Part shown: piece after piece, positions 63,103 to 64,000 of the stretch
Layout: every line of letters starts with the position of its first letter
Numbering within the stretch: position 1 is the first letter of the stretch
NCBI RefSeq assembly: GCF_003019035.1
Contig: NZ_CP027447.1
DNA from: Escherichia coli
Lineage (GTDB): Bacteria; Pseudomonadota; Gammaproteobacteria; Enterobacterales; Enterobacteriaceae
DNA length: 64,000 bases
Direction: 5' to 3' (one strand)
Program-made: the position numbers and the translations under genes
Notes under the pieces: model-generated
What the model was told of the DNA's origin: nothing
Seen by the model: the letters and a program-made list of their open reading frames with translations, nothing else
Databases searched by the model: none

Positions 63103-63684
63103 GTGCTGATTGGCTATGTAAGGGTATCAACAAATGACCAGAATACAGACCTGCAACGAAACGCTCTTGTTTGTGCAGGATGTGAACAAATATTTGAAGA
63201 TAAATTAAGCGGAACAAGGACAGACAGACCTGGATTAAAGCGCGCTTTAAAGCGTCTTCAAAAAGGTGACACACTGGTTGTCTGGAAACTGGATCGCCTC
63301 GGGCGAAGCATGAAACATCTGATTTCTCTCGTCGGAGAACTACGGGAGCGAGGGATTAATTTTCGCAGCCTTACTGACAGTATTGATACGTCATCCCCAA
63401 TGGGGCGTTTTTTCTTCCACGTTATGGGTGCCCTGGCTGAAATGGAACGAGAACTAATCATCGAGCGAACGATGGCTGGACTTGCTGCCGCCAGAAATAA
63501 AGGCCGTATTGGTGGGCGACCACCTAAACTAACCAAAGCGGAATGGGAGCAGGCCGGGCGTTTATTAGCACAAGGAATCCCCCGCAAGCAGGTTGCATTG
63601 ATCTACGATGTGGCCCTGTCAACTCTGTATAAAAAACACCCCGCGAAACGAGCGCATATAGAAAACGACGATCGAATCAATTAA
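63103..63684 (+). CDS. gin: Gin serine DNA invertase
   Basis: ORF 63085..63684; likely GTG start 63103 (MLIGYVRVSTNDQNTDLQRNAL...); resolvase/invertase catalytic Ser in VRVSTNDQ and C-terminal HTH. Confidence 0.9.
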   Translation: MLIGYVRVSTNDQNTDLQRNALVCAGCEQIFEDKLSGTRTDRPGLKRALKRLQKGDTLVVWKLDRLGRSMKHLISLVGELRERGINFRSLTDSIDTSSPMGRFFFHVMGALAEMERELIIERTMAGLAAARNKGRIGGRPPKLTKAEWEQAGRLLAQGIPRKQVALIYDVALSTLYKKHPAKRAHIENDDRIN

Positions 63685-63710
63685 ATCGATCGGTAATACA
63701 GATCGATTAT
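63668..63710 (+). promoter_or_regulatory. mom operon regulatory region with clustered Dam GATC sites
   Basis: Three GATC sites at 63670, 63688 and 63701 within about 35 bp upstream of com. Confidence 0.6.
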
Positions 63711-63778
63711 GCCCCAATAACCACACTCAACCCATGATGTTTTTTAAGATAGTGGCGAATTGATGCAAAGGAGGTGAG

Positions 63779-63967
63779 ATGAAATCAATTCGCTGTAAAA
63801 ACTGCAACAAACTGTTATTTAAGGCGGATTCCTTTGATCACATTGAAATCAGGTGTCCGCGTTGCAAACGTCACATCATAATGCTGAATGCCTGCGAGCA
63901 TCCCACGGAGAAACATTGTGGGAAAAGAGAAAAAATCACGCATTCTGACGAAACCGTGCGTTATTGA
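63779..63967 (+). CDS. com: Com zinc-finger translational activator of mom
   Basis: 62-aa [41 protein letters not shown]... with C4 zinc finger; GGAGG RBS. Confidence 0.85.
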
Positions 63968-63969
63968 GT

Positions 63970-64000
63970 ATGAAGGCCAGATTGTTGGCTATGGTTCAAA
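63970..64000 (+). CDS. mom: Start of mom (DNA modification gene), truncated by window end
   Basis: ATG at 63970 overlapping com stop, reading [10 protein letters not shown]...; identification by position only. Confidence 0.35.

Follow-up and report, generated by a model that had tools for sequence, protein, structure and literature searches.

A com–mom operon with a control region identical to that of bacteriophage Mu in a Mu-like prophage inserted in Escherichia coli ddpA

Results

Genes at the right arm of the prophage

The window, that is, the whole 64,000-nucleotide stretch of E. coli DNA analysed here, ends within the right arm of a Mu-like prophage, where the invertase gene gin is followed by com and by the beginning of mom. 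The genes concerned are the following.

28311–64000, plus strand: Mu-like (Muvirus) prophage in E. coli ddpA, left end up to the edge of the window
38198–38620, plus strand: gene C, late transcription activator needed by the mom promoter Pmom; intact, 140 aa, taken from the ORF list
63103–63684, plus strand: gin, G-segment invertase, 193 aa; Mu annotation 35092–35673, offset +28011
63779–63967, plus strand: com, a 62-aa CCCC zinc-ribbon protein identical to Mu Com; ribosome-binding site at 63769–63773
63918–64000, plus strand: mom, 27 codons plus 2 bases, with a GTG start inside com; Mu CDS 35907–36602

In an alignment with six relatives, positions 63640–64000 were identical at 361 of 361 bases to positions 35629–35989 of Mu (AF083977; window coordinate = Mu coordinate + 28011), so that all elements mapped in Mu can be placed here to the base. 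The five other aligned relatives differ from the window at a few positions, which lie between the conserved elements. Over its last 1 kb, the window is 97–98% identical to Mu, D108, SfMu, PhiR68_1, and Yersinia Mu-like phages, and its matches to Mu-like prophages of 43 complete E. coli genomes reach 98.6%. The curated Mu record places in this region gin, the late promoter (35693–35759), the com ribosome site and com CDS (35768–35956), the mom ribosome site (35896–35899, GGAG), and the mom CDS (35907–36602), which has a GTG start.

GATC sites and the OxyR-type operator

The elements upstream of com that carry the Dam targets are listed below, with distances given from the Pmom transcription start.

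63658–63694: OxyR-type operator, −99 to −63, covering GATC sites I and II
63670–63673: GATC site I, Dam target, −87, within a PvuI site (CGATCG)
63688–63691: GATC site II, Dam target, −69
63701–63704: GATC site III, Dam target, −56, at the upstream edge of the C footprint

An earlier note on this DNA had pointed to three GATC sites upstream of com, and they were found at exactly the positions it gave (63670, 63688, and 63701), spanning 35 bp. Two overlapping 12-nt inverted repeats (palindromes 63669–63692 and 63684–63708) carry all three of them. The operator agrees at 11 of 16 positions with ATAG-N7-CTAT-N7-ATAG-N7-CTAT, the OxyR consensus (reportedly that of Toledano and colleagues from 1994), and it ranks among the top 15 of the approximately 64,000 positions. 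The limits of the OxyR footprint follow a secondary citation. Two PvuI sites (CGATCG) lie 18 bp apart, from 63670 to 63688, in agreement with the 18-bp PvuI fragment described for Mu (PMC3378877).

The three sites might be an accidental by-product of the palindromic sequence that closes gin, with no regulatory role in this prophage. Such triples do arise by chance: random placement of the 68 GATC sites of the prophage gave a triple within 31 bp in 10% of the trials (58% for the whole window), and GATC site I lies inside the gin coding sequence. A second and comparable triple, within 21 bp at 2208–2231, was observed in the coding sequence of narH (nitrate reductase Z beta subunit), where it is probably due to chance, indicating that clusters of this kind are by themselves non-diagnostic. 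Clustering was dropped as an argument for the sites because the random-placement statistics fail to single out the locus, and the support therefore rests on their unique arrangement, their invariance, and the identity to Mu. Indeed, the arrangement GATC-N14-GATC-N9-GATC occurs once in the window against an expectation of 0.01, and the number and spacing of the sites are invariant in all 17 fetched Mu-type loci containing the region, despite substitutions between the sites. Moreover, the prophage is otherwise poor in GATC (68 sites against about 126–138 expected), and the sequence is identical to that for which control by Dam and OxyR has been demonstrated (PMC3378877, PMC2909390). To a by-product without regulatory role we accordingly attach practically no probability, and the three sites are taken as the Dam targets of the operator.

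Three further observations concern this region. As to GATC content, the 28.3 kb of host DNA holds 131 sites, and a 3.8-kb stretch of the early region of the prophage (32155–35943) has none. The gin stop codon, TAA at 63682–63684, is common to the window and Mu; in D108, SfMu, vB_YpM_5, and RM8082 the codon is CAA, so that Gin gains 4 residues, for a length of 197 aa, and its reading frame crosses GATC site II, whereas PhiR68_1 keeps the 193-aa form. The end of gin therefore overlaps the OxyR/Dam operator. A terminator-like hairpin with a T-run is found on the minus strand at 63636–63655, inside the 3′ end of gin and shortly before the OxyR-type site, and is oriented in the direction of the divergent promoter momP2.

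Promoter and C-binding element

Downstream of the operator, the promoter elements could be laid out as follows.

63706–63721: C-binding element, imperfect dyad ATTATGCCCCAATAAC (TTAT-N6-ATAA), centred at −43.5, read from the sequence
63720–63757, plus strand: weak promoter Pmom, with transcription start (+1) at 63757
63720–63725, plus strand: −35-like hexamer ACCACA (PMC2582627)
63740–63745: T6 run, within the 19-bp spacer of Pmom (PMC2582627 for the spacer)
63745–63750, plus strand: −10 hexamer TAAGAT

The start at 63757 was set by three independent published anchors (PMC4461284, PMC3378877), namely, the 78-mer Ptin7 fragment running from −58 to +20, which ends at 63776; a primer described as "downstream of +56", which starts at 63813; and the tin7 T-to-G change at −14, which corresponds to 63743. 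The TTAT-N6-ATAA motif proper occupies 63707–63720, and in Mu, C binds a 16-bp dyad centred at −43.5 with a footprint from about −30 to −55 (PMC2582627). A scan of the Pmom region for the sigma-70 consensus returned no promoter, a result that fits an activator-dependent promoter but is by itself uninformative. In Mu, Pmom is weak and C-dependent, RNA polymerase being otherwise found at the divergent momP2, and Fis adds repression (PMC3378877, PMC2909390, PMC4461284).

The earlier note had stated that methylation of the GATC sites relieves the repression of mom. That part stands, OxyR and Dam jointly governing Pmom (PMC3378877, PMC2909390), but the account was incomplete, since methylation removes only the repression by OxyR, whereas transcription needs C as well and translation needs Com.

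Com and the mRNA structures in front of mom

The product of com had been described as a C4 zinc-finger protein, which is borne out by Cys6, Cys9, Cys26, and Cys29 and by a match to Pfam PF10122 (Zn_ribbon_Com, E = 3.3e-9); there is also a full-length match to PHROG 13819 ("gpCom control of modification"), with E = 4.6e-45. A search by sequence among solved structures gave no relative of Com, and no NCBIfam model matched Com, Mom, or the ORF after mom. The label "DNA-binding transcriptional regulator" that the NCBI pipeline gives to Com is a misnomer for a protein that binds mRNA and activates translation.

Two elements on the mRNA, both within the com coding sequence, are concerned with the translation of mom.

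63886–63904, plus strand: Com target on the mRNA, GAAUGCCUGCGAGCAUCCC, the native 19-mer of binding studies (PMC6483171), with a CC-N3-GAG motif
63902–63922, plus strand: translation-inhibition structure, in which CCCACGG (63902–63908) pairs with UUGUGGG (63916–63922)

The 19-mer has a single exact match in the window, and the 25-mer from the same study (PMC6483171) is likewise exact, at 63886–63910. Folding predicted a hairpin with the arms 63881–63885 and 63897–63901, and the inhibition hairpin appeared in both the minimum-energy and the centroid fold. The inhibition stem holds part of the mom Shine-Dalgarno sequence GGAG (63907–63910) together with GUG at 63918–63920. These hairpins are short, and their fold energy is indistinguishable from that of shuffled sequence (z = −0.81), so that their support comes from the identity to the experimentally probed Mu RNA. 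In Mu, the stem of the inhibitory structure includes the GUG start codon of Mom, and Com, by binding the hairpin that adjoins this structure, makes the start signals of mom accessible (PMC6483171).

Start codon and extent of mom

That mom is cut off by the end of the window, as the earlier note had remarked, was confirmed, but its estimate of about 10 codons within the window did not hold. The start is the GTG at 63918, inside the 3′ end of com but in another frame, and mom therefore has 27 codons in the window and a 50-nt overlap with com. Indeed, the translation of 63918–63998 is identical to residues 2–28 of the crystallised Mom (PDB 8bv8, "Methylcarbamoylase mom").

The shorter estimate agrees with a start at the ATG at 63970, which is present three bases past the com stop codon and which would leave about 10 codons in the window and no overlap with com. 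This frame, however, runs into a stop after 36 codons when read in the contigs extending the window and found no match among solved structures, whereas the frame from 63918 is that of the crystallised Mom and runs for 238 codons; moreover, both the curated Mu record and the literature put the GUG start inside com. The ATG at 63970 lies in the wrong frame and was rejected as the mom start, for which it retains next to no credibility.

A second candidate, the in-frame ATG at 63888, lies ten codons upstream of the GTG and, if used, would bring 37 codons into the window and give a product of 241 or 248 aa. Some genomes are annotated in this way by the NCBI pipeline, the mom genes of RM8082 and D108 starting there, and a 248-aa product is called in a related contig (L009); furthermore, the residues Y28, W48, R111, and S124 of a 2026 structure paper equal the GUG-based numbers plus 10. 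Against this start, the ATG sits inside the 19-mer bound by Com and has no annotated Shine-Dalgarno sequence, while in the curated Mu record mom has GGAG as its ribosome site and starts with the GTG at 35907. PMC6483171 also puts the GUG start codon of Mom in the hairpin stem, and the first residue of the crystallised chain is the Val that this GTG encodes. We thus consider translation from ATG 63888 unlikely and retain GUG 63918 as the start of mom.

The prophage and its insertion site

The first 28,310 nucleotides of the window are E. coli chromosome, with narI, narZ, fdnGHI, maeA, osmC, and the ddp operon, and are 100% identical to the corresponding DNA of E. coli SCU-301, in which ddpA is uninterrupted and thus represents the empty site. 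The left end of Mu, TGTATTGATTCAC, begins at 28311, and by blastn against Mu, positions 1–35989 of Mu map onto 28311–64000 of the window. The whole prophage extends from 28311 to about 65407 (37,097 bp), the position of the right end being deduced from contigs with the same junction. It interrupts ddpA, the gene for a D,D-dipeptide ABC transporter binding protein, and is accompanied by a 5-bp duplication, TTCAG, seen in the window at 28306–28313 and at window-equivalent 65407 (contig L016, 8520–8545).

When the prophage was compared with PhiR68_1, a viable phage, each annotated protein was recovered at full length in a single alignment and without frameshift, with the exception of the variable ends of the tail fibres and the gene after mom. 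C is 100% identical to C of PhiR68_1 and, by inspection, differs from Mu C by two substitutions among the last three residues (SQK versus TPK). Gin is 99% identical to that of PhiR68_1, and the final codons of its gene overlap GATC site I and the OxyR-type site. Upstream of gin, two opposed pairs of tail-fibre and tail-fibre-assembly genes show the layout of the invertible G segment. The prophage is apparently intact and probably inducible, and it disrupts ddpA.

Other parts of the prophage depart from Mu. The G segment occupies 60189–63048, flanked by inverted repeats at 60189–60229 and 63011–63048, and its variable tail-fibre and assembly genes show about 70–80% DNA identity to Mu and 52–79% protein identity to PhiR68_1, which suggests different host-range alleles. 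The immunity module (28650–29584), which encodes a repressor of 172 aa on the minus strand along with a Ner-like protein of 75 aa, has no DNA match to Mu or D108 and matches PhiR68_1 (96% aa identity for the repressor); it therefore represents a third immunity type within otherwise Mu-like DNA. In the early region (35755–36764 and 38068–38070), two ORFs of 222 and 113 aa replace Mu gp13–gp15 and are common to PhiR68_1, and Mu 9462–9832 (gp19) has no counterpart in the window.

Continuation of mom past the window

The part of mom downstream of 64000 was read in other assemblies that share the prophage–ddpA junction, rather than in the window's own record. The query was the predicted protein in which the N-terminal part of ddpA reads into the Mu right end, and it was used in an exact-sequence look-up. 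This ddpA::Mu fusion protein is present in 57 blocks of public assemblies, so that the lysogen lineage has been sequenced many times. Three same-junction contigs overlap the last 575–577 bases of the window with 0 mismatches. In exact-pattern scans of a collection of species-representative genomes, both the predicted right junction and the observed left junction were absent.

Extension past 64000, as the earlier note had proposed, led in the same-junction contigs through an intact mom of 238 codons to the Mu right end, TTCAG, and the rest of ddpA; in these contigs, an intact mom, rather than sequence lacking one, thus lies downstream. The mom stop codon is at window-equivalent 64632–64634, and the right end, ...GTGCGCCGCTTCA, is at window-equivalent 65407, followed by TTCAG and the remainder of ddpA, as predicted. 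Translation gave a Mom of 238 aa, identical to Mu Mom at 228 of 231 residues, which bears out its integrity. This full-length Mom matches 8bv8 (E = 4.2e-157), carries PF25680, and matches PHROG 1384. An Arg and a Ser are essential for Mom (R111 and S124; PMC13219725), and both catalytic residues (R101 and S114 when counted from the GUG) are present; the 8bv8 chain has Ala at its S124A position, opposite the Ser of the contigs' Mom.

Between mom and the right end, the contigs hold an ORF of 111 aa (minus strand of L016, 8823–9158; window-equivalent 64770–65105) with a signal-peptide-like start, MKKILIAVLLCFGVLSANQAIA.... It is unlike the D108-specific gene, and nothing matched it in PHROGs, NCBIfam, or the precomputed Pfam assignments; it may represent an accessory gene, or moron.

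The operon could also be a relic, the prophage being defective or mom broken beyond the window edge. The window does end 27 codons into mom, its own continuation was not recovered, and many E. coli prophages are decayed. However, the same-junction contigs carry the intact mom, the right end, and the 5-bp target duplication, nearly all of the PhiR68_1 genes are present at full length without frameshift save the tail-fibre ends and the gene after mom, and C and com are intact. A relic is thus very improbable, and an intact operon remains the reading adopted here.

Discussion

The com–mom operon is already known in full detail and is one of the best-characterised phage regulatory regions. The operon of Mu (AF083977, 35629–36602) and that of the present prophage share all 361 comparable bases, from the GATC sites through the 27 codons of mom. 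Beyond the window, Mom of the continuing contigs differs from Mu Mom in its C-terminal part by K222N, K225R, and V226I and is 7 residues longer (238 versus 231 aa), and the right arm of the contigs is approximately 0.68 kb longer than that of Mu, in which the 111-aa ORF after mom is absent. The gin–com–mom order and the GATC triple are shared by PhiR68_1 (PV340575.1), D108, SfMu, and the Yersinia vB_YpM phages, which nevertheless show 4–6 substitutions in the 139-bp control region, in contrast to none in Mu, and differ from the prophage in the variable parts of their tail fibres. PhiR68_1 shares with the prophage the non-Mu immunity module and the early-region genes, but, like D108, has a different gene after mom.

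The earlier note had proposed a com–mom operon under Dam control, from a phage of the Mu type, which agrees with the identity of 361 of 361 bases and with the position directly downstream of gin, at the right end of a Mu-collinear prophage. Collectively, we regard the locus, with high confidence, as the com–mom operon of a temperate transposable phage of the Mu type, having the complete multi-layer control region and, judged from its sequence, working as in Mu. It is from the identity to Mu, and from this identity only, that we infer expression dependent on dam, oxyR, C, and com, and N6-carbamoylmethyl-adenine in the virion DNA.

The scheme that follows joins the findings of this analysis, namely, the identity to Mu, the element positions, the integrity of C and com, and that of mom in the continuing contigs, with binding and catalytic steps that all come from published work on Mu. 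Pmom would be silent in the lysogen and during early infection, being a poor promoter (ACCACA, a 19-bp spacer, and a T6 run), and host OxyR would occupy the three-GATC operator whenever the sites are not fully methylated. Dam would methylate the GATC sites at 63670, 63688, and 63701 and thereby keep OxyR from binding. During late lytic growth, a C dimer would bind the dyad at 63706–63721, realign the promoter elements, recruit RNA polymerase, and aid promoter escape, with transcription starting at 63757. Com, once translated, would bind the mRNA hairpin at 63886–63904 and open the adjoining hairpin at 63902–63922, which would otherwise hide the mom ribosome site and the GUG at 63918. Mom, with its GNAT fold, would then transfer glycine from Gly-tRNA(Gly) to N6 of adenine in double-stranded DNA, and the glycine adduct would rearrange to N6-carbamoylmethyl-adenine, blocking many restriction enzymes. 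For Mom itself, the glycine transfer from Gly-tRNA(Gly), the rearrangement to N6-carbamoylmethyl-adenine, and the evasion of restriction are described in PMC13219725, and the statement of the earlier note that Mom modifies adenine and confers anti-restriction accords with the literature (PMC3378877, PMC2909390, PMC6483171, PMC13219725).

A similar operator logic is known from agn43 and P22 gtr in E. coli and Salmonella, where OxyR represses through a GATC-bearing operator and Dam methylation blocks its binding (PMC2909390). These systems differ in that they phase-vary and need neither a phage activator nor a translational activator. Because the OxyR/Dam operator logic is the same as in agn43, mom, or the divergent momP2 transcript, might conceivably be phase-variable in a subpopulation of lysogens, with heritable on/off expression in a widespread lineage of ddpA-inserted prophages; alternatively, the variant right arm, that is, the Mom extended by 7 aa at its C-terminus and the unannotated 111-aa ORF, might have a lysogenic-conversion function. 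We consider these readings highly unlikely.

Public records label Mom variously as "hypothetical protein", "protein mom", "adenine methylcarbamoylation protein", or "tRNA(Gly)-dependent adenine aminoacyltransferase", and disagree on its start, some taking the GTG and others the ATG that precedes it by ten codons. The automated labels are thus misleading, three different start codons for mom are in circulation, and an overlapping gene start of this kind is readily missed when a sequence is read by eye. The locus is of little value for discovery, and its practical value lies in annotation, in that it marks the right arm of the prophage.
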